In this document: positions 32,096 to 49,833 of the stretch, one piece after another
Numbering within the stretch: the first letter of the stretch is position 1
Layout: each line of letters opens with the position of its first letter
From: Escherichia phage phi2013
DNA: 49,833 nucleotides
Strand: one strand, 5' to 3'
Sequence record: MT427400.3
Notes under the pieces: model-generated
The model's database searches: none
Seen by the model: the letters and a program-made list of their open reading frames with translations, nothing else
Told to the model about the DNA's origin: nothing
Translations under genes and position numbers: made by a program

Positions 32096-32512
32096 ATGCA
32101 TATTATCACTGGCGAGATCCGCAAAGAACCTAAGATTCTTGAACGTAACGGCGGCAATACTTATATCATCGAACTGGCAGAAAGCTATAAGCCTCGCGAT
32201 GGCGATCGTGAATACACCAACTACACATTCTTTTTTAGCGATGGTGGAAAGCCTGGCCTTGCTGACTGGTATCGTGAAGCGTTCCAGGTTGGTCGCGTAG
32301 TATCAGTGTCGTGCGAAACTCTGAAAATCTCATCCCGTGAGCACAACGGAACTGTTTACAATTCATTGCAGGCCGCTGATTTTCCTAAGCTGGTATTCAG
32401 TCAGCGAGGACAAAGCAATCAACAACAGCGATCGCCTCAGCAACAACAGCGAACTCAACAACAACCACAACCGAACCATCAGTCAACATTTGACGATGAT
32501 ATCCCATTCTAA
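32096..32512 (+). CDS. ssb: single-stranded DNA-binding protein
   Basis: ends with canonical SSB tail FDDDIPF after a Q-rich linker. Confidence 0.75.
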   Translation: MHIITGEIRKEPKILERNGGNTYIIELAESYKPRDGDREYTNYTFFFSDGGKPGLADWYREAFQVGRVVSVSCETLKISSREHNGTVYNSLQAADFPKLVFSQRGQSNQQQRSPQQQQRTQQQPQPNHQSTFDDDIPF

Positions 32513-38532: not shown

Positions 38533-39246
38533 ATGAAAGACTTTAATGATATCGAAACTATCGACTTTGCTGAAACTGGTTGCTCATTCACTCGCGAAGC
38601 AATAGCGTTTGGCGGTTATTATCAGGCACTAAAAACTCCAACATGCAAAGAGATTTCAGGCCGTCGATATAAGGGAACCAATACGCCGGATGTTGTTCGT
38701 GATTTATGGTCAACCCCGCGCGAGGTTATTGCGTACCTTGAGGGGCGTTATGGAAAATACGATCTCGACGCTGCGGCAAGCGAAGAAAATAAAGTTTGCG
38801 AGAAGTTTTATTCTCAGGAAACAAACTGCTTAAAACGTTGGTGGGGTAAAAACAAGCATGTATGGTTAAACCCTCCTTATAGTCGACCTGATATATTCGT
38901 CAAGAAGGCGATCGAGCAAATGGAGCACAATAATCAGATTGATATTCTGTTGCCTGCCGATAATTCTACAGCGTGGTTTACTGAGGCGCGACAGCACGCG
39001 GCTGAAATCATCTGGATTGAAGCTGACTTGACTGAGGATATTGACGGCAACGAGTATGCTCGATCCGGACGACTGGCGTTTATATCCGGTGAAACCGGAA
39101 AGGCCGTAGATGGTAATAACAAAGGTTCGGTAATTTTTATCATGCGCGAACTTAAAGATGGTGAGACGCAGCAAACTCACTATATCCCAATCACAAGCAT
39201 TTGCCCTTCGGTGAAAAACAAGCGCGCAAAAGTGAGGAAAGTATGA
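38533..39246 (+). CDS. DNA N6-adenine methyltransferase (phage Dam family)
   Basis: NPPY motif (WLNPPYS); 237 aa. Confidence 0.7.
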   Translation: MKDFNDIETIDFAETGCSFTREAIAFGGYYQALKTPTCKEISGRRYKGTNTPDVVRDLWSTPREVIAYLEGRYGKYDLDAAASEENKVCEKFYSQETNCLKRWWGKNKHVWLNPPYSRPDIFVKKAIEQMEHNNQIDILLPADNSTAWFTEARQHAAEIIWIEADLTEDIDGNEYARSGRLAFISGETGKAVDGNNKGSVIFIMRELKDGETQQTHYIPITSICPSVKNKRAKVRKV

Positions 39247-42960: not shown

Positions 42961-43066
42961 GTACCTTTTTACGTTAAGTAGTAACTCCCCATCCTGGTCG
43001 CAAAGATTATGCTCGCTTTCGTTACTGGCCCTCATTGAAGTGAGCAACAGACTCAACAACCCTTGC

Positions 43067-43474
43067 TCAAATTCTTCTTTCGTAAGCTGGAGCCTTGCGC
43101 ACAATTCGACGTTCCGATCTATCAATGTTTCTACGTTCTCCAAACAAATCCTCATCACTCATCTCTCCAATGTGCATCATTTCCCACGTATACCGATTGT
43201 TGTAGCCATCAATACACATCAGCTTCATCATTACCGGGCGCTTAATCTTTCCCTTGCACCAGTAAAACCCATCCCTGCAATCAAGATAACCCTCAGTTAC
43301 ACAGCGTGAGCAAAACTCCTTAGATAGCGCGCTTGTAAATTCACGGCGAGTCATTCCTGCGGCCTTAGCAAATCGCTCACTTTCCTTGTGGGCGTATATA
43401 AATTTCGCTATGTGCTGTCGAGTGTATTTGTCGTAACCTTCGCAGAACCTGAACAGATCTAAAAGAAGAAGCAT
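43067..43474 (-). CDS. hypothetical Cys-rich protein
   Basis: 135 aa with 7 Cys; overlaps stop of upstream gene. Confidence 0.5.
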   Translation of the reverse strand: MLLLLDLFRFCEGYDKYTRQHIAKFIYAHKESERFAKAAGMTRREFTSALSKEFCSRCVTEGYLDCRDGFYWCKGKIKRPVMMKLMCIDGYNNRYTWEMMHIGEMSDEDLFGERRNIDRSERRIVRKAPAYERRI

Positions 43475-43478
43475 ATTA

Positions 43479-45047
43479 TTAACCCATCAGTCGAGGGTTG
43501 ATGAAAACAATATCATCAATCCGGCAAGTGTAGTTCATCTCTTCGAGCGTGATCAGCAGGCTGTCGATTCGCTCAGATACTTTCTGTTGACCGTTGAACG
43601 GCGTAACGTTCCGGCACTTTGCAACGATGCTATGAATAGGTGCGCGGCCTTTGTTCTTCTTCGCGATCTCAGTGATAACATCAATCAGCTTACGAGATTC
43701 AGCCTCATCACCTGCATACCCGGCAGCGCTGGCAGATGACAGGTAAGTCCTGGAAAGCTCATTGAAGATCATGATCGCTTCCTGCATTGTTTCAAGGTCA
43801 ATCTCACGATTAGATCGGTTCGGTGATTCACCCTCCCAATTCTTGATCGTGTGAAGAACTGAAGCAATGCGCAAAGCGTGCTTATCGAACTTACCGAGAT
43901 GACCGCGTAGCATTGAGTGAGAGTATTTGCCCCCGGCGGCGAAATCAGGCTCCATCGCCTGGCGAGCAAGGTTTAATTCACGCATAGCGTTACGGCTTAC
44001 AGAGAGAACGACGTTGTCCTCCTTCATAATGTTGTGCACGAGTCTGTAATATTTGCTAACCAGTCCGCGATCTACTTCCTTATACAGCGCATCACCATTT
44101 TCATCGCAAAGAATACGAGTACCTAAAAGCGGTTCCTCTCGAACCAGGAGGAAACGCTCAGATACACCGATACCGCGCTGGCCTGCGTCCATGATACCCT
44201 TGATTGTTTCATCCTGCGCAATGACGCAGATCGAACCGACCGGGCAAAGAGATAAGTTGTTGTCCTGATTTGAACGCGCGACCTCCATATGGTTTTTATC
44301 CCACGCCTTAAGAATAAGCTCGCTGTTTGATTTCTTATCAGAACCGCCATAAGTCAGACCAAGCAATGTATTGATTGCCGTTGCTTCATCAGATATTACG
44401 GAAAAGTGGCCTTGAACAGCCGCAACTTTCGCAAGACCTTCAGGTGTAGGATCTGATACCGCGAAAACAATATCAGCCATCTTCTTGATCTTTTCTTCCA
44501 GTTTTTCCTTGTCTTCGTACAGAGCCGCCGTCGTGTTACCCTTTGGATCGTTTTTTATTTCTTTCTCGACCTGACGTAGCTGACTGGTTAAACGTATGCG
44601 CTCCTTTTTGCGCTCTTCATTCAGTCGCTGAATCTCCGCACGCATAGGTGTAATCGCCGCTGAGTTAATAGCGGACTTACCTGTTGATGGTGGCTGGCTG
44701 ATTACCATGTAAAGCGCGGTCGGCTGTTCTTCGCCGTGATATTGCACCCAAAACTTCCCGAGCATAGCGGCTGAGATGCACCCAATGAAATGAGCGTACG
44801 CAGACGAAACAGGGAACTGTACAGACTCAGCCTTTGCCTTTGCATATTCGAATACCAGGTTATCGCCACCTAACGAAATCAGCGGGAACTTATCGTTTCC
44901 ACTGTTGATATCGATCGGATCTTGCCAAAACGAAACTGAATCCCCATAGCTGTTTTCACGAATTGCGATCGACACCGGATTAACTCCAGTGCTATTTGCG
45001 ATCTCAATAATCTGTTGGTAATTCAATTTTGGCTTAATATTAAACAT
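43479..45047 (-). CDS. P-loop NTPase with SF3-helicase-like Walker A (PPSTGKS)
   Basis: start at ATG 45047 after SD aaggag; Walker A ISQPPSTGKSAI; 522 aa. Confidence 0.55.
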   Translation of the reverse strand: MFNIKPKLNYQQIIEIANSTGVNPVSIAIRENSYGDSVSFWQDPIDINSGNDKFPLISLGGDNLVFEYAKAKAESVQFPVSSAYAHFIGCISAAMLGKFWVQYHGEEQPTALYMVISQPPSTGKSAINSAAITPMRAEIQRLNEERKKERIRLTSQLRQVEKEIKNDPKGNTTAALYEDKEKLEEKIKKMADIVFAVSDPTPEGLAKVAAVQGHFSVISDEATAINTLLGLTYGGSDKKSNSELILKAWDKNHMEVARSNQDNNLSLCPVGSICVIAQDETIKGIMDAGQRGIGVSERFLLVREEPLLGTRILCDENGDALYKEVDRGLVSKYYRLVHNIMKEDNVVLSVSRNAMRELNLARQAMEPDFAAGGKYSHSMLRGHLGKFDKHALRIASVLHTIKNWEGESPNRSNREIDLETMQEAIMIFNELSRTYLSSASAAGYAGDEAESRKLIDVITEIAKKNKGRAPIHSIVAKCRNVTPFNGQQKVSERIDSLLITLEEMNYTCRIDDIVFINPRLMG

Positions 45048-45076
45048 CACAATAAACTCCTTAGTTGACGGTGTGA

Positions 45077-45120
45077 ATGATACACCGCCAATGGTACACG
45101 CGTTTTGCAAAAAGTGCTAT
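45077..45120 (-). promoter_or_regulatory. promoter cassette (minus strand)
   Basis: minus-strand tagcactttttgcaaaa, 22-bp spacer, TATCAT, upstream of ATPase gene. Confidence 0.45.
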
Positions 45121-45123
45121 TGG

Positions 45124-45540
45124 TTATAAGTATTTGGCCTCAAAGGTTGTGCCATCTGCGATACTAAAACCGATCTCTTCGCGAAATAATGTCCAACGGC
45201 ATCCGTCCTCATCAAAGATGTAACCAGCTACGCCGCCGAGAGCGCGACCGCTTTCTACCTGGTAACGCTTTCCAACTTTGAATGATTTTTTCATCGGGTT
45301 GCGATGGTCAAGTCCGGTGCACTTTAGCGTCTTTGTTTTCAACTCGGTGAATTTCGCGAAGAAGATTTCATCAGTTCCGTGAATCTGTAATTCATCATGC
45401 TTTTCAAGTTTTAAATACTTCCCGCATTTTAGTTTTACTTCGCGAGTACCATCATAGCGCTCACGACCTTTATACAAATTGTTTACTTCGAATCCTGTGA
45501 TCTTGTCTGCGGAAGTGCATTTCAGTTTGATGGATTTCAT
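45124..45540 (-). CDS. hypothetical protein
   Basis: 138 aa, SD aggag. Confidence 0.5.
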   Translation of the reverse strand: MKSIKLKCTSADKITGFEVNNLYKGRERYDGTREVKLKCGKYLKLEKHDELQIHGTDEIFFAKFTELKTKTLKCTGLDHRNPMKKSFKVGKRYQVESGRALGGVAGYIFDEDGCRWTLFREEIGFSIADGTTFEAKYL

Positions 45541-45577
45541 GGCGCTAGCTCCTGATTGGTTATCTTGAATAAGGCCA

Positions 45578-45620
45578 CTTTATCAAATGACCTTACGGCA
45601 ATATTAACAAATCGTGCTAT
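45578..45620 (-). promoter_or_regulatory. promoter cassette (minus strand, approximate)
   Basis: minus-strand tagcacgatttgttaa then about 21 bp then TGa-TAAAGT. Confidence 0.4.
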
Positions 45621-45830
45621 TTACCAGGGAATATAATTGTCGTCGTCCTCATCAATATCATCACCAGGTAACTCGAAGTCTGGATTATATTCGCTTTCTG
45701 CGTCCATATCCATATTCCCTAGAGCGTCATCAAGCGTAATTTCTTTATACGCAACCTTTATACACCATTCCGCACTAAGCCCAGCATCAAGAGCGGCAAA
45801 ATAACGAGTCCAGAAATTATCCTGCTCCAT
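45621..45830 (-). CDS. small acidic protein with SSB-tail-like C-terminus
   Basis: about 30% Asp/Glu; ends DDIDEDDDNYIPW, compared with SSB tail DDDIPF. Confidence 0.5.
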   Translation of the reverse strand: MEQDNFWTRYFAALDAGLSAEWCIKVAYKEITLDDALGNMDMDAESEYNPDFELPGDDIDEDDDNYIPW

Positions 45831-45833
45831 CAA

Positions 45834-46058
45834 TCAACCCCATGAATTAATGTAAATTGAGTTAGCCTCAAGCGTAGCGCGCACATCCGCATCTGTTGCA
45901 TTTACTAAGCGCGAGCCTGGCGTGCTGCCGATAACGTTATTACCGTTACGAGCCTTAGTTACCGTCATTGAAATAAAACCGGAAGACTTATCCATTTTGA
46001 TAACTACACGGCCTTTAGCGTTCAGGTGCGTGATGATATTCTCAACTTTAATGCTCAT
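45834..46058 (-). CDS. hypothetical protein
   Basis: 74 aa, SD aagga. Confidence 0.5.
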   Translation of the reverse strand: MSIKVENIITHLNAKGRVVIKMDKSSGFISMTVTKARNGNNVIGSTPGSRLVNATDADVRATLEANSIYINSWG

Positions 46059-46091
46059 TTTTAATTCCTTTGTTTCGTTTGGTGTGGGAGT

Positions 46092-46136
46092 AATATACCT
46101 TACCCCCTATTGTATGTCTTTAGCAATTCGTGCTAT
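46092..46136 (-). promoter_or_regulatory. promoter cassette (minus strand, approximate)
   Basis: minus-strand tagcacgaattgctaaa then about 22 bp then TATATT. Confidence 0.4.
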
Positions 46137-46275
46137 CAGTACTCAGAAATTACTTTGCACTCTTTGATTGTTCCACCCAAAACTACTTTCTGCATCATTG
46201 CTTTTTGTTGGCTATCGTAAACGCGAACATTTTTTACTCTGTTAAATTTGCCAGTATAGAAGGTGTGAATATAAA

Positions 46276-46596
46276 TCATTTTTTACCGTCCCACGTTTGA
46301 TATGCCGTAACCAGGTTAATGCTGTGGTCGAACTCGTCAACGCTAAGCGATCCGATTCTAACAAGCTCTTTGTCGTGCTTAATATCAATCATCCGGCTAT
46401 ATGGATGGCCTGGCACATACTTGAACAGTCGTTTGCTGTCGGCAATGTCTGCGTTGATTCCGTAGAATCGGCCTACCGCCGCCTTAACGCGCTCCATGAT
46501 GTTTTTTTCGTGGATTGCCGCCGCGTTATTTAGTGCCGCAACCGTGCTTCCGTTAATCTTCGGTGACTTCGTTGTGATTTTGTAAGTGTGGTTCAT
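46276..46596 (-). CDS. hypothetical protein
   Basis: start moved to ATG 46596 after SD aggggg (track ORF extends to 46662). Confidence 0.45.
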   Translation of the reverse strand: MNHTYKITTKSPKINGSTVAALNNAAAIHEKNIMERVKAAVGRFYGINADIADSKRLFKYVPGHPYSRMIDIKHDKELVRIGSLSVDEFDHSINLVTAYQTWDGKK

Positions 46597-46612
46597 CATT
46601 CCCCCTAACCAG

Positions 46613-46813
46613 TCAGGATAGCTTTCGCGCTTCATCAATGATAACAGGCTCAAGGCGTTCAAGTCGAACGCGGAACGAGTTCATAAATCCTTCGTTGTTC
46701 TTCAGTAGTTCGAATGCGTCTGTAGCTTCAATGGCGCTATTCCCCATGTAGGCAATTACTTTTTTCTGAGTCTTACGTGAGATCGCCACTACGCGGTAAA
46801 TATTATCACTCAT
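46613..46813 (-). CDS. hypothetical protein
   Basis: ATG 46813 after SD aagagg; 66 aa. Confidence 0.4.
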   Translation of the reverse strand: MSDNIYRVVAISRKTQKKVIAYMGNSAIEATDAFELLKNNEGFMNSFRVRLERLEPVIIDEARKLS

Positions 46814-47177
46814 ACAATGCCTCTTTAACACGATCCGCTACACATGAGTTAACGGTGATTGAATAGTTAGCCACGCCCCATAATGCAATATTGCCAAGCT
46901 CGGTACGCATTGATGGATTGTTTAGCTGAATGATTGTCTCGCCAGTATCTTTATCGACGAAGCGAGACACGCCAGAATGGTCCACCACGCGCGTTACTCG
47001 GTTCACGCACTCCATTGCATCACTTACACCATAATAGGCGGTTAGGGCGGCTCTCACGGCCTTCTCTTGCTTGTTGTAAATCTTGCGAGCGATGTTCTCG
47101 ATCGCTACGCTTTCTTTCTCGTCAGTCTGGATTGCCGTGCTGGCTGAGAAGTCCAGATCTGTGAACTGCTTAAACAT
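46806..47177 (-). CDS. hypothetical protein
   Basis: ATG 47177 after SD acgagga; promoter cassette immediately upstream. Confidence 0.5.
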   Translation of the reverse strand: MFKQFTDLDFSASTAIQTDEKESVAIENIARKIYNKQEKAVRAALTAYYGVSDAMECVNRVTRVVDHSGVSRFVDKDTGETIIQLNNPSMRTELGNIALWGVANYSITVNSCVADRVKEALYE

Positions 47178-47208
47178 GATTATTTCCTCGTTTGCTGCTG
47201 ATGGGATG

Positions 47209-47252
47209 ACTATACCAGCCATCCCGGATGCGCGTTTAGCAAAAAGTGCTAT
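47209..47252 (-). promoter_or_regulatory. promoter cassette (minus strand)
   Basis: minus-strand tagcactttttgctaaa, 22-bp spacer with gggatg/catccc dyad, TATAGT. Confidence 0.5.
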
Positions 47253-47438
47253 TTAGAATTTTACTTCCTCAACAAGCTCAACCATTTTATAACCCAGGCG
47301 ATATGAGTCGCCGAACAACAACAGACCCATAAATTCATCGTTGGTTATCGACTCCTTACCAACAGTTTTAAGTTCTCCGTTGTGAATCACAGTATCGCCG
47401 ATCTTGATTTCTGATTTATGCACTAATTTCGTTTTCAT
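47253..47438 (-). CDS. hypothetical protein
   Basis: 61-aa ORF. Confidence 0.4.
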   Translation of the reverse strand: MKTKLVHKSEIKIGDTVIHNGELKTVGKESITNDEFMGLLLFGDSYRLGYKMVELVEEVKF

Positions 47439-47453
47439 TTGTTAGCCTGTTAA

Positions 47454-47639
47454 TTAAAAGAACGCTACATAGTTTGCAATACCTTTTGCATCGTCGTTAG
47501 GCATCGCCTTGACAGCCAGGTCATAACCAGCCTCTACCTTCTGCTTTGCTGATTCTTCGTTGTATCCCCAAATAACCAGGATTTTAACTACGTTTTCTTT
47601 GTTCAGAACTTTAAGGTATTTAGTGATGCGACGTGCCAT
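47454..47639 (-). CDS. hypothetical protein
   Basis: ATG 47639 after SD gagga; track start 47654 is TTG. Confidence 0.45.
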   Translation of the reverse strand: MARRITKYLKVLNKENVVKILVIWGYNEESAKQKVEAGYDLAVKAMPNDDAKGIANYVAFF

Positions 47640-47672
47640 TTTGTTTTTCCTCAATCTCGTTTCGATGAGGTA

Positions 47673-47717
47673 ATTATGCCAAATCGCACCGATCGAGTTT
47701 TAACAAAAAGTGCTATT
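47673..47717 (-). promoter_or_regulatory. promoter cassette (minus strand)
   Basis: minus-strand tagcactttttgttaaa, 22-bp spacer, CATAAT. Confidence 0.45.
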
Positions 47718-48404
47718 TGCGATCGCTTTGAAAAATCCACGAGGAGATAAGGAACGTATCAGCTTCGTTTTGGCAGACTTGCCGCCCAGCTTGTTTTGCT
47801 GTGCAGAGTACCCGTCAGGCAGGTTTACAGGCTTCCTTTCTGGCATGACAAAGTCGTCCGAAGTCCAAAGACAAGTTTTCTTCGGGTAAGCATCGCGCGG
47901 CGCAATATACATCGGGAACCAGGGGTGTGCGTCATTCTCAGGAAGATAGCCGCCATACTCCCAGGGATTGAAAGTGTGGTCAGCCTTTCGCCAGGCTGAT
48001 GACAGGACGCTAACCGGATTCTCAATGATGTAAGTCACACCCAGGCTATCACCGATGTTCGCGGCAATCCGGGCGGTGGCAACAGCTTTCTCCTGGAATA
48101 GCGGATCACGTTTACGCTTGCTGGCAAAGTGTCGAGCACCACTAACGGCCAGGTCAGTGCACGGCGGGAAGGCCATAATGAAATCCGGCTTGCCATACAC
48201 ACCCGCGATCGCATCACGTTCGAACGTTTCATCAATGAACACGTTCACATACTCAATGTTGGGATGCTCTACCCGGGCATTGTACTTTGCATAATCTCCG
48301 TGATCGGCTCCGTCAAAGTTGAAGCACATCACTTTATGACCTTGCTTTGCCAGTTCATGACCAGCCAGGCCCGAGCCGTCGAATAGTGACCAGATTAATT
48401 TCAT
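47700..48404 (-). CDS. compact DNA (cytosine-5)-methyltransferase-like protein
   Basis: motif I-like LFDGSG, motif IV-like FPPC, motif VI-like IIENP; SD aggagg; only 234 aa. Confidence 0.5.
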   Translation of the reverse strand: MKLIWSLFDGSGLAGHELAKQGHKVMCFNFDGADHGDYAKYNARVEHPNIEYVNVFIDETFERDAIAGVYGKPDFIMAFPPCTDLAVSGARHFASKRKRDPLFQEKAVATARIAANIGDSLGVTYIIENPVSVLSSAWRKADHTFNPWEYGGYLPENDAHPWFPMYIAPRDAYPKKTCLWTSDDFVMPERKPVNLPDGYSAQQNKLGGKSAKTKLIRSLSPRGFFKAIANSTFC

Positions 48405-48613
48405 TTCGTTACCTCCTGGAAAACAGTTTGTCCGCTATTGGTCAGGAAGCGCCCGATCTTATTCATTGACCGGAACACGCCGATCTGATTCTGATGATTG
48501 TCAGTCGCGAAGTAACCGCCATCAATAAGGTAGATTTCATACACTGATTGATTCGTGAAGCTGTCAGTGCTGACGCTAACACATCGTACGGTACATTCAA
48601 ATTCTGGTTCCAT
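48401..48613 (-). CDS. hypothetical protein
   Basis: 70 aa; stop overlaps methyltransferase start. Confidence 0.45.
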   Translation of the reverse strand: MEPEFECTVRCVSVSTDSFTNQSVYEIYLIDGGYFATDNHQNQIGVFRSMNKIGRFLTNSGQTVFQEVTK

Positions 48614-48645
48614 TGCCTGAGTCCTCTGATTGGTTGATGTGATGA

Positions 48646-48690
48646 ATCATACCCTGCCGACCTGGCTGAGTCGTTAGCAAAAAATGCTAT
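48646..48690 (-). promoter_or_regulatory. promoter cassette (minus strand, approximate)
   Basis: minus-strand tagcattttttgctaa then about 22-23 bp then TATGAT. Confidence 0.4.
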
Positions 48691-48740
48691 TCCAATAATT
48701 GCTCATTATTCCATCAATAGCGGAATAGGTGGAATAATTC

Positions 48741-48830
48741 TGATTGCGATTGATTGCAAATGATGAAACGTGATTATTGCATGGTTTGCAACAGTTGGTT
48801 GATTTGTTGCTTAGATTGCAATGATTGTGA
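48741..48830. repeat. imperfect tandem array with 10-bp period (TGATTGCnAT-like units)
   Basis: tgattgcgat / tgattgcaaa / tgatgaaacg / tgattattgc at 48741-48780, further gattgcaatgattg copies to 48830. Confidence 0.55.
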
Positions 48831-48832
48831 GA

Positions 48833-48839
48833 GGGGGGG
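48833..48839. repeat. G7 homopolymer tract
   Basis: ggggggg in an otherwise AT-rich noncoding region. Confidence 0.7.
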
Positions 48840-49000
48840 ATCTAGTGTTGCCCGGTTCGCCTGGTAGTCATCTCCATTTTTAGCAAAAAGTGCTATCGAT
48901 TACACTTTACCTTGTCACAGATGTAATATTTGTCTAGAATCGCACTTGTGACAAAATTACACACTGTGACGCCTCTAAATATACATATAGATATATGTAT

Positions 49001-49017
49001 CTATATAATATATATAG
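49001..49017. repeat. 17-bp AT-rich repeat CTATATAATATATATAG (copy 2)
   Basis: exact match to 29902-29918. Confidence 0.65.
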
Positions 49018-49240
49018 TGTTTTCTTTATTTATATATATAGATAATTATATTGTAATAGTTGTGTATAGTTGTCTTACATTGTCTAGCGTACTGTTGGCA
49101 TATTTCTATCTGCATGTTTATATATACAGTACTTTTTTGAGAGCTATATATTTCTATAGTGACTCTAGACAGCTAGACAAATGTTACACAGCTTAATATC
49201 GGCTCGCAGTCATTGACAGCTCTGTATCGCACTGTCACAA

Positions 49241-49255
49241 TGTCAATTGTTGACA
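49241..49255. repeat. perfect palindrome TGTCAA-TTG-TTGACA
   Basis: 6-bp arms; nearby related half-sites tgtcaca, tgtgaca, ctagaca, tgtctag. Confidence 0.6.
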
Positions 49256-49299
49256 CATTATGACGCCATTTACACACGAATAGACAAAGAGGATATATT

Positions 49300-49815
49300 A
49301 TGAGCAATACCAATCAGGAATTAAAAATCACCGATATGATTCGACTAACCTGCGATGCAATGTATCGCGACAAAGGCATGAATGAGTTCTCTTTCGTGGC
49401 TGATGATATGGCCCTCGAGGCCGCGCGATTCTACTTCCGTGACCAGGAGGTAAGTGATAGCGATCTTGAATCTGCCGCTGCCGGATGGGTGGACCAGAAC
49501 CAGGGTGAGGTGGAGAAGCGATTCAAGTCTGCTTTCATTACGCCAATCATTACCCGGCACTTTTGCAAGTATGGCAAGGTGGCAAAGGTGAAGGTAGGCC
49601 GGAATGACGCTGCAATCACAATGATAACGGTTATCGTTACCGACGAAGAGATTCCCGTGAAGAAGCGCCGCAGTCGGAAGAAAGTTAGCCTGGCCGATTG
49701 CCTGGATTCGTTTGTGGTTGATGTGGGTAAACTGGCTGATAGCGAATTGATGACTCGTGACGTAAACGAGATCGTTCGCCAGATGAAGGCGCATATCGAA
49801 AAGTGTGGACTGTAA
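49300..49815 (+). CDS. hypothetical protein (first rightward gene after the noncoding hub)
   Basis: 171 aa; SD aaagagga; stop lies inside the terminal 26-bp repeat. Confidence 0.55.
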   Translation: MSNTNQELKITDMIRLTCDAMYRDKGMNEFSFVADDMALEAARFYFRDQEVSDSDLESAAAGWVDQNQGEVEKRFKSAFITPIITRHFCKYGKVAKVKVGRNDAAITMITVIVTDEEIPVKKRRSRKKVSLADCLDSFVVDVGKLADSELMTRDVNEIVRQMKAHIEKCGL

Positions 49816-49827
49816 GCACTGAGCGGT
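49802..49827. repeat. terminal direct repeat, identical to 7-32
   Basis: agtgtggactgtaagcactgagcggt at both window ends. Confidence 0.8.
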
Positions 49828-49833
49828 TTAATC

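Follow-up and report, generated by a model that had tools for sequence, protein, structure and literature searches.

Introduction

In Enterobacterales other than Escherichia coli, SSB carries the same C-terminal tip, DDDIPF, as it does in E. coli, and SSB P176S is the classic ssb-113 defect. In phage T7, gp2.5 and gp4 have acidic C-terminal tails that end in Phe and dock on T7 DNA polymerase. Phage DNA mimics, such as Ocr, ArdA, Arn, Ugi, p56 and gp5.9, are small, very acidic early proteins that present their carboxylates on a rigid fold.

The C-terminus of E. coli SSB reads DDDIPF (PMC5872125), and at least 17 genome-maintenance proteins dock on the SSB tip (PMC7145534, PMC10018359). The terminal Phe cannot be dispensed with, SSB F177A having lost all binding to Red-beta, and Kd values for the SSB-Ct peptide are 98 nM with ExoI, 2.7 uM with Pol III (chi), 6 uM with RecQ and 10.6 uM with Red-beta (PMC6393309). 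Because these affinities are modest, even moderate expression could plausibly suffice for a competitor; SSB-partner interfaces are blocked by synthetic SSB-Ct peptides and by small molecules (PMC5872125, PMC3594151), and the SSB tip is an explored antibiotic target. Among phage proteins, Sak4 of HK620 requires the last six residues of its cognate SSB, NDYPPF (PMC5928155), and a further source is available for the gp2.5 tail of T7 (PMC12339929). A preprint links a phage SSB-like protein with FDDDIPF, host ExoI and activation of the DRT10 defence (10.64898/2026.04.29.721553); this protein (Bas52_0087 of phage Bas52) was considered as a member of the family described below and rejected, being a true two-OB-fold SSB-like protein.

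Here we analyze a small acidic protein of T1-like phages, gp69, which ends in an SSB-like tip. The SSB-type C-terminal docking tip is already known; what is new is that a whole phage family presents such a tip on a scaffold other than SSB. The literature (open-access papers and bioRxiv) yielded nothing on the gp69 family or on mimics of the tip that are not SSBs, and an earlier description elsewhere is possible.

Results

gp69 Is an Early Gene under Purifying Selection

The window analyzed is the 49,833-nucleotide sequence of Escherichia phage phi2013 (MT427400.3). An ATG...TAA reading frame of 69 codons plus stop on its minus strand (Table 1) encodes the product MEQDNFWTRYFAALDAGLSAEWCIKVAYKEITLDDALGNMDMDAESEYNPDFELPGDDIDEDDDNYIPW, which ends DDIDEDDDNYIPW and contains 20 Asp/Glu against 3 Lys/Arg (29% acidic residues; net charge about −17). 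The original prediction of a 69-residue acidic protein with an SSB-tail-like end was accurate in every detail, and its placement of the gene in a leftward block of small genes is confirmed, the block being an early one upstream of a DUF3987 helicase and adjoined by methyltransferase genes. Allowing for an 853-base offset between the two records, the reading frame coincides with the CDS FDG91_gp69 of Escherichia phage JMPW1 (Drexlerviridae, Tunavirus), labelled “hypothetical protein”. The 1.7 kb around the gene is 100% identical to JMPW1 and 92–94% identical in many other T1-like coliphages and in Shigella phages. gp69 is a homologue of T1 gene ST6 (88% identity), and its residues 1–69 match positions 1–69 of the 69 in phrog_9085 (T1 ST6-like; E=5.8e-46).

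Pairwise comparison (Nei-Gojobori) of gp69 with its homologues in eight related phages gave dN/dS ratios of 0.03–0.12 overall, 0.00–0.13 for residues 1–46 and 0.03–0.35 for residues 47–69. The Shine-Dalgarno (SD)-like site reads GGGG here and GGAG in most relatives, and the upstream context TGG[A/G]G..TAATTAATG is kept in 15 related loci. The low dN/dS ratio, together with the SD-like site and a start codon 4 nt after the upstream stop, establishes that gp69 is a genuine gene under purifying selection.

Table 1. Positions in the window of gp69, its parts, its neighbours and the phage SSB gene
Feature	Positions	Strand	Basis
CDS of the 69-residue acidic protein (gp69 / ST6 homologue / phrog_9085), stop included	45621..45830	-	ORF, JMPW1 annotation, dN/dS
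N-terminal domain, residues 1–46, predicted small acidic three-helix bundle	45693..45830	-	AF2, family alignment, dN/dS
Disordered acidic linker, residues 47–65 (EYNPDFELPGDDIDEDDDN)	45636..45692	-	pLDDT, variability among homologues
Acidic run D57–N65 within the linker	45636..45662	-	translation
C-terminal tip Y66-I67-P68-W69, free carboxylate	45624..45635	-	conservation, codon variation
Stop TAA of gp69	45621..45623	-	sequence
SD-like GGGG, 7–10 nt upstream of ATG, within end of upstream gene	45838..45841	-	sequence
TGA stop of upstream gene, 4 nt before gp69 ATG	45834..45836	-	sequence
Upstream neighbour, 74 aa (phrog_4344)	45834..46058	-	
Downstream neighbour, 138 aa (phrog_2684)	45124..45540	-	
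DUF3987-type DNA helicase (end coordinate taken from JMPW1 annotation)	43479..45047	-	Pfam DUF3987 E=3.4e-42; phrog_2373 'DNA helicase'
Phage SSB-like protein, 138 aa, ends STFDDDIPF (tip codons 32492..32509)	32096..32512	+	phrog_44

Genomic Context and Distribution of the Family

In every locus examined, including L019–L022 and T1, the small gene lies one to four genes upstream of the DUF3987 helicase, while its immediate neighbours differ between genera. Two deposited phage genomes hold broken copies: in vB_SsoS_008 the 74-residue upstream gene and a truncated copy of the 69-residue gene form one in-frame fusion, and in vB_EcoS-DELF2 the copy is frameshifted. Given these copies, the gene may be dispensable. 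A promoter and terminator scan of positions 43000..49833 returned counts equal to those of shuffled sequence and nothing usable.

The fixed position within the same early operon as the helicase would suit an adaptor that uses its N-terminal domain (N-domain) to bind one of the phage replication proteins, either the DUF3987 helicase or the primase, and its tip to recruit a host SSB partner, candidates being the chi-psi arm of the Pol III clamp loader, DnaG or PriA; such a protein would be a detachable “acidic tail” comparable to those of T7 gp4/gp2.5. The gene content agrees with this, since a helicase and a primase are encoded in the JMPW1 genome and no DNA polymerase is annotated there, as does the layout of a binding domain, a disordered acidic linker and a tip, which is the architecture of SSB, itself a recruiter; the stronger constraint on the N-domain than on the linker points the same way. 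However, the varying neighbours leave no conserved adjacent partner, the two broken copies suggest that the gene may be dispensable, the phage SSB already offers a canonical chi-binding tip, and the N-domain is also found in Ackermannviridae-type phages, and a relative of one of its carriers in a T7-like phage, away from such a helicase. On balance we consider an adaptor unlikely, though it is the foremost of the alternatives and carries real weight.

Relatives of gp69 were found by tblastn in 454 deposited phage records, those listed being phages of about 48–54 kb that infect Escherichia, Klebsiella, Shigella, Salmonella, Citrobacter, Enterobacter, Cronobacter and Hafnia. All seven records for which the taxonomy was looked up belong to the Drexlerviridae. 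The hosts named in the search summary and among the matches listed are all Enterobacterales, except for 20 records labelled Campylobacter; at 48–50 kb, these may well be T1-like phages. There were no relatives of gp69 among 72,556 plasmids, nor in a search of bacteria and archaea in which 185,579 species were each represented by one genome. The absence of the family from the plasmids and genomes searched gives no support to an origin in prophages or cells, which had been considered.

The N-domain also occurs within longer proteins of unrelated phages, in non-replicative contexts. Carriers include a 158-residue myovirus protein encoded between tail and lysis genes, proteins of 159–170 residues in ViI-like phages, and proteins with a zinc-ribbon module (phrog_3786). 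The N-terminal part of one zinc-ribbon protein, P0092, resembles an early-region protein of a T7-like phage, the latter being without the N-domain. At the myovirus and T7-like loci, no partner of the longer proteins could be deduced from the neighbouring genes.

gp69 Is Predicted to Be a Three-Helix Domain with a Disordered Acidic Tail

AlphaFold2 (AF2), run on a 26-sequence alignment of gp69, predicted helices at residues 6–16, 20–27, 33–39 and 42–45, with block-mean pLDDT values of 78–87 over residues 1–40 and of 53–62 from about residue 46 to the end. A homologue of the cysteine type (see below) is modelled likewise, with three matching helices and low confidence in its C-terminal part. On these models gp69 is a three-helix domain of about 45 residues with a flexible acidic tail. 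The signature of the N-domain, AGL[NS].EW..KVA...TL..ALG.MDMD.ES (or, more narrowly, ending ALGDMDMD.ES), covers the sole part of the protein that can be aligned family-wide. By dN/dS this domain is constrained more than the acidic linker, which varies in both sequence and length among close homologues.

No OB-fold ssDNA-binding domain was found in gp69, which has no Pfam match and is modelled with three or four short helices and no strands. Pfam gave no family above threshold for gp69 or for 21 diverse relatives. A PDB sequence-profile search with gp69 returned chance matches alone (E>=0.066), and the matches among the viral structures of BFVD were uncharacterised relatives alone. A clamp-binding motif (QL[SD]LF) was considered for the gp69 tail and rejected by inspection, there being no Gln or Leu pattern.

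These models bear on the proposal, also part of the original prediction, that the acidity of gp69 mimics DNA. Charge rather than the tip would then be active, with gp69 blocking restriction or other DNA-binding defences, or filling the ssDNA cleft of SSB. The composition and net charge of gp69 and the acidity of all family members are as such a mimic would require, the gene is an early one among small genes with methyltransferase genes adjoining, and the E. coli SSB C-peptide is reported to bind its own OB domain (PMC3936761). The most acidic segment, however, is predicted to be disordered (pLDDT 53–62), is variable, and in about half of the members retrieved has a cysteine cluster in its place, whereas the conserved parts are the N-domain and the terminal tripeptide; nor did gp69 show sequence or fold similarity to the known DNA mimics. 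DNA mimicry is thus weakly supported, and as a pure mechanism it is the weakest of the rival explanations and very improbable.

The C-Terminal Tip Is Retained While the Linker Diverges

In 26 close homologues the tip Y66-I67-P68-W69 scarcely varies, whereas the acidic run differs in sequence and length, and the codons of the tip vary synonymously among relatives (CCC/CCT/CCG for Pro, TAT/TAC for Tyr). W69 directly precedes the stop codon, leaving a free carboxylate on the aromatic residue. Distant homologues were collected in two rounds of profile searching, the first against 1.84 billion representative proteins and the second against 5.8 billion clusters. At 34–62% identity, they have the N-domain in common, with C-terminal halves that cannot be aligned; some of these halves are acidic and many contain the pattern CxC-x5-CxxC, a cysteine cluster resembling a zinc knuckle. 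The cluster replaces the acidic stretch in about half of the retrieved members, including the IPF and FPF classes.

The resemblance to an SSB tail that had been noted for gp69 proved not to be a one-off, with 129 of the 135 retrieved members ending in IPW (61), FPF (38), IPF (20), IPFW (5), LPF (3), EPF (1) or ISF (1). A Pro-Phe or Pro-Trp ending is present in 124 of 132 short members; in these 124, Pro at −1 is constant, and position −2 is occupied by Ile (82), Phe (38), Leu (3) or Glu (1). Some distant homologues have near-canonical SSB-like endings (..CLDDIPF, ..FDDGIPF, ..KDEIPF). The range is illustrated by Klebsiella phage KLB19 (Vilniusvirus; ..CINEIPF), Salmonella phage phSE-2 (Tlsvirus; ..CKRCFPF), Cronobacter phage ESP2949-1 (Kyungwonvirus; ..CCECMPF), Hafnia phage Pocis76 (..CPECIPFW) and Enterobacter phage Ec_L1 (Eclunavirus; ..CKECIPFW). 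In the IPFW members (the five retrieved and the Hafnia and Enterobacter phage copies) the ending is not Pro-aromatic. In the FPF class (38 of the 124; ..C[AKP]RCFPF), position −4 is Arg and positions −3 and −6 are Cys. Acidity before the tip is present in gp69 (seven of the eight residues D57–D64) and the IPW class and absent from the FPF class, while every family member is acidic as a whole, with net charges from −4 to −20.

By these comparisons the hydrophobic-Pro-Phe/Trp end is the most conserved feature outside the N-domain, and is kept by selection while the linker drifts. Taken as a constraint in evolution, the reading of this end as an SSB tip has good support, the tip persisting in distant homologues with linkers that can no longer be aligned.

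Within-Genome Comparison with the Phage SSB

The window also encodes an SSB (phrog_44 'single strand DNA binding protein', E=1.1e-24), the gene of which adjoins those for Erf and a RecE-like exonuclease and the last six residues of which are the E. coli SSB-Ct hexapeptide DDDIPF (PMC5872125). Among the ORFs of at least 40 codons in the window, this SSB and gp69, and no others, end in [ILVM]P[FWY]; from the amino acid frequencies of the window, the chance expectation for a [ILVMF]P[FWY] end is about 0.08 genes per 80-gene genome. In shuffles of gp69, a tail of this kind with at least three acidic residues in the preceding six has p = 4e-4. In phage atuna, from a different subfamily (Tempevirinae), the SSB ends ..IDFDDDIPF and the small protein ..CPRCFPF, with no other such ORF. 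Co-variation between the two tips was not seen in this comparison, the atuna SSB keeping DDDIPF while its small protein has FPF; among phages of the same host, the small-protein tip varies more than the phage SSB tip.

The breadth of accepted endings raises the question of whether the likeness to DDDIPF is coincidental, the tip docking instead in another host or phage pocket for C-terminal peptides, or acting as a stability or degradation signal. Consistent with this, the last three residues alone are conserved family-wide, those preceding them range from Asp-rich to Cys or Arg, and the family accommodates Trp, Met, Phe at −2 and an additional Trp at the end. Yet SSB ends in exactly I-P-F, which ranks second in frequency among the endings of the family, and endings in DDIPF and DEIPF occur; SSB is the only other ORF with such an ending in both genomes scanned, and all family members are strongly acidic, like SSB tails. 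We judge a tip unrelated to SSB to be improbable.

The side-by-side genes for Erf, the RecE-like exonuclease and the DDDIPF-tipped SSB also allow for a regulator of phage recombination, in which the gp69 tip would compete with the phage SSB tip for Erf or the RecE-like exonuclease and so time or limit their loading. SSB tips are read by Red-beta (Kd 10.6 uM; PMC6393309) and by Sak4 (PMC5928155). We found no evidence for binding of SSB tips by the Erf family, however, the small gene lies in a different operon some 13 kb away, and an early inhibitor of the phage's own recombination would have no obvious benefit, all of which makes such a regulator distinctly improbable.

Discussion

Our leading interpretation, held tentatively, is that gp69 is an SSB-tip decoy or inhibitor of one or more host SSB-partner enzymes. 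In this mechanism the tip would plug into the hydrophobic pocket and basic lip by which SSB-interacting enzymes hold the SSB tail, and the acidic N-domain with its conserved ALGDMDMD.ES segment would make a second contact with an adjacent basic surface, conferring specificity and affinity. gp69 would thereby keep one host partner, or a small number of them, uncoupled from DNA coated with SSB. The acidity of the whole protein suits a basic, DNA-binding-type surface beside the tip pocket. We infer binding of the tip to SSB-tail pockets, the identity of the partner and the inhibitory effect from sequence comparisons, on which basis the phage probably uses gp69 to block or hijack one SSB-recruited replication or repair enzyme.

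The most attractive targets would be ExoI (SbcB), RecQ or RecJ, which SSB recruits onto 3' single-stranded ends and which would attack intermediates of recombination-dependent replication by the phage RecE-like/Erf/SSB system. Since the phage SSB carries a host-type tip, the phage would draw these enzymes to its own intermediates. They are suggested as candidates by this biology only.

The original prediction envisaged a free tail mimic in competition with host SSB. The part concerning the tip stands, in that an SSB-like end is conserved, but gp69 is not just a tail, since residues 1–46 form a conserved, predicted three-helix domain. As the N-domain is the best-conserved part of gp69, the protein appears bipartite, which points to a targeted inhibitor or adaptor and away from a generic competitor; unselective competition would be a hindrance to the DDDIPF-tipped SSB of the phage as well.

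A decoy is favoured over an adaptor because the broken copies suggest that the gene is possibly dispensable, because the differing neighbours include no conserved adjacent phage partner, and because the N-domain occurs in non-replicative contexts in unrelated phages. An accessory rather than a core role fits both the two broken copies and those contexts. On the other hand, the constant operon position with a replicative helicase fits a replication adaptor equally well. Several features also speak against simple docking in an SSB pocket: the gp69 tip has Trp for Phe and an extra Tyr; the Arg at −4 of the FPF class, where SSB has Asp, and the IPFW ends are ill-suited to a generic basic-ridge pocket; and within the phages of one host the small-protein tip varies while the phage SSB tip does not.

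A bolder claim, in which we place somewhat less confidence than in the decoy mechanism, is that the family represents the first natural virus-encoded decoy of the SSB hub, by which T1-like phages switch off or capture a specific host SSB-partner enzyme, with the decoy tip presented on non-SSB proteins by either an acidic linker or a zinc-knuckle-like cysteine cluster. If so, the target of gp69 would single out the SSB partner of greatest importance to a large group of virulent phages of enterobacteria, and Tyr-Ile-Pro-Trp would be a ligand of natural origin, possibly of higher affinity, for the pockets that take the SSB tail. A function would also be assigned to a gene that is conserved, annotated as “hypothetical” and found in 454 deposited phage genomes, many of which stem from phage-therapy work.

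Comparison with Known Systems

gp69 shares with the bacterial SSB-Ct (...MDFDDDIPF) and with phage SSBs an acidic segment that is disordered (by prediction in gp69), a terminal Ile-Pro-aromatic sequence and a free carboxylate, with Pro at −1 invariant as in SSB-Ct. In contrast to SSB, gp69 has no OB fold but a 45-residue three-helix domain, and the two are not homologous. The tips also differ in detail: gp69 ends D-D-D-N-Y-I-P-W, with Trp in place of Phe and a Tyr at −3 between the acidic run and I-P, and in sister clades of gp69 a Cys4 cluster, sometimes with Arg, precedes the tip.

With T7 gp2.5 and gp4, the likeness is that of an acidic, replication-associated phage tail with a terminal aromatic residue serving as a docking element. 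The T7 tails, however, belong to the SSB and the helicase themselves and bind the phage polymerase, whereas gp69 is a separate protein of 69 residues in a phage with no polymerase annotated. The tip of HK620 SSB, NDYPPF, resembles D-[DN]-Y-I-P-W in its Asp-Tyr-x-Pro-aromatic pattern (PMC5928155), and since this tip is functional, an SSB-type tip can work with Tyr at −3 (PMC5928155). The difference is that HK620 carries its tip on a true SSB and that the tip docks a phage protein.

gp69 is small, very acidic and early, like the phage DNA mimics. Contrary to the carboxylates on their rigid folds, its acidic stretch is predicted to be disordered and is poorly conserved, and no match in sequence or fold to them was found. 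The synthetic SSB-Ct blockers show that monovalent competition at the SSB-Ct pocket is a feasible means of disrupting genome maintenance in bacteria, and gp69 would be a natural form of such a competitor; the blockers are man-made, however, and do not have the second binding domain that gp69 would bring to the interface.

Variation in the small acidic protein family

The three-helix N-domain of the small acidic protein (JMPW1 gp69/T1 ST6 homologue) is a mobile module, present within 158–170-residue proteins (phrog_4823) from myoviruses, ViI-like phages among them, and in 217–309-residue proteins with a CPAC..CPAC zinc-ribbon module (phrog_3786). Matches in BFVD include proteins from phages ViI (E1XTJ6) and phiEa2809 (A0A0A0YRC2). 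The IPF tip was found in none of the longer proteins of either group. In approximately half of the retrieved homologues of the small protein, the acidic linker is replaced by a CxC-x5-CxxC cysteine cluster, which lies directly N-terminal to an IPF or FPF tip. Judged from its sequence, the cluster resembles a zinc knuckle that presents the tip, and it may bind metal.

Disrupted copies of the small gene occur naturally in two phage sequences. In Shigella phage vB_SsoS_008 the stop codon of the upstream gene has been lost, fusing that gene in frame with the N-domain, and a nonsense codon following MDMD removes the tail; in the sequence matching Escherichia phage vB_EcoS-DELF2, a frameshift breaks the gene after approximately residue 26. 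Because of these copies, the gene may be dispensable, unless the disruptions are sequencing errors.

Features of the window and of compared loci (L, loci of other phages; P, retrieved homologues)
Feature	Location	Strand	Remarks
SSB-like protein, 138 aa	window 32096..32512	+	"hypothetical" in JMPW1 annotation
DNA methyltransferase (JMPW1 gp57)	window ~38533..39246	+	
Downstream neighbour of small gene, 138 aa	window 45124..45540	-	phrog_2684
ORF of unknown function, 128 aa	window 46276..46662	-	phrog_10555; 106 aa as annotated
DNA methyltransferase	window 47700..48404	-	
Disrupted small gene	L014 977..1183		vB_SsoS_008; fusion and nonsense codon
Disrupted small gene	L017 4001..4208		matches vB_EcoS-DELF2; frameshift
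T1 HNH endonuclease ST8	L018 3086..3625		
Longer N-domain carriers	L023 5001..5477		also P0079, P0084, P0086, P0092, E1XTJ6, A0A0A0YRC2
Cys-type members	L028 46031..46255		also P0068, P0073-P0075, P0080, P0083, P0089, P0090, P0094-P0141

SSB-like protein and genomic surroundings

The phage also encodes an SSB-like protein, in which a Gln/Pro-rich linker precedes the C-terminus STFDDDIPF; the final six residues are those of the E. coli SSB tip. Its sole family match in Pfam, PDB sequence and PHROG searches was phrog_44, with no match to the Pfam SSB family or, by sequence, to the PDB.

The downstream neighbour matches DUF7244 weakly (E=0.011) and looks internally duplicated, since MKSIKLKC... 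close to its start recurs as ...KTKTLKC... close to its middle. In T1, ST8 sits between this gene and the helicase gene; its absence from the window (compared region ~45050..45124) and from JMPW1 makes it look like a mobile homing-endonuclease insertion. One of the phage's two methyltransferase genes shares the early leftward operon with the small gene. In some relatives, the stretch that tblastn matches to the small gene is annotated as a methylase ("putative cytosine DNA methylase", "Dcm"), a label that looks mistaken there.

Phage SECphi27 is probably T1-like. The Mokosh type I defence system is reportedly triggered by a SECphi27 "128 aa protein of unknown function" (preprint 10.1101/2022.08.27.505566). 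The 128-residue ORF in the window has the same stated length as this trigger and might correspond to it.
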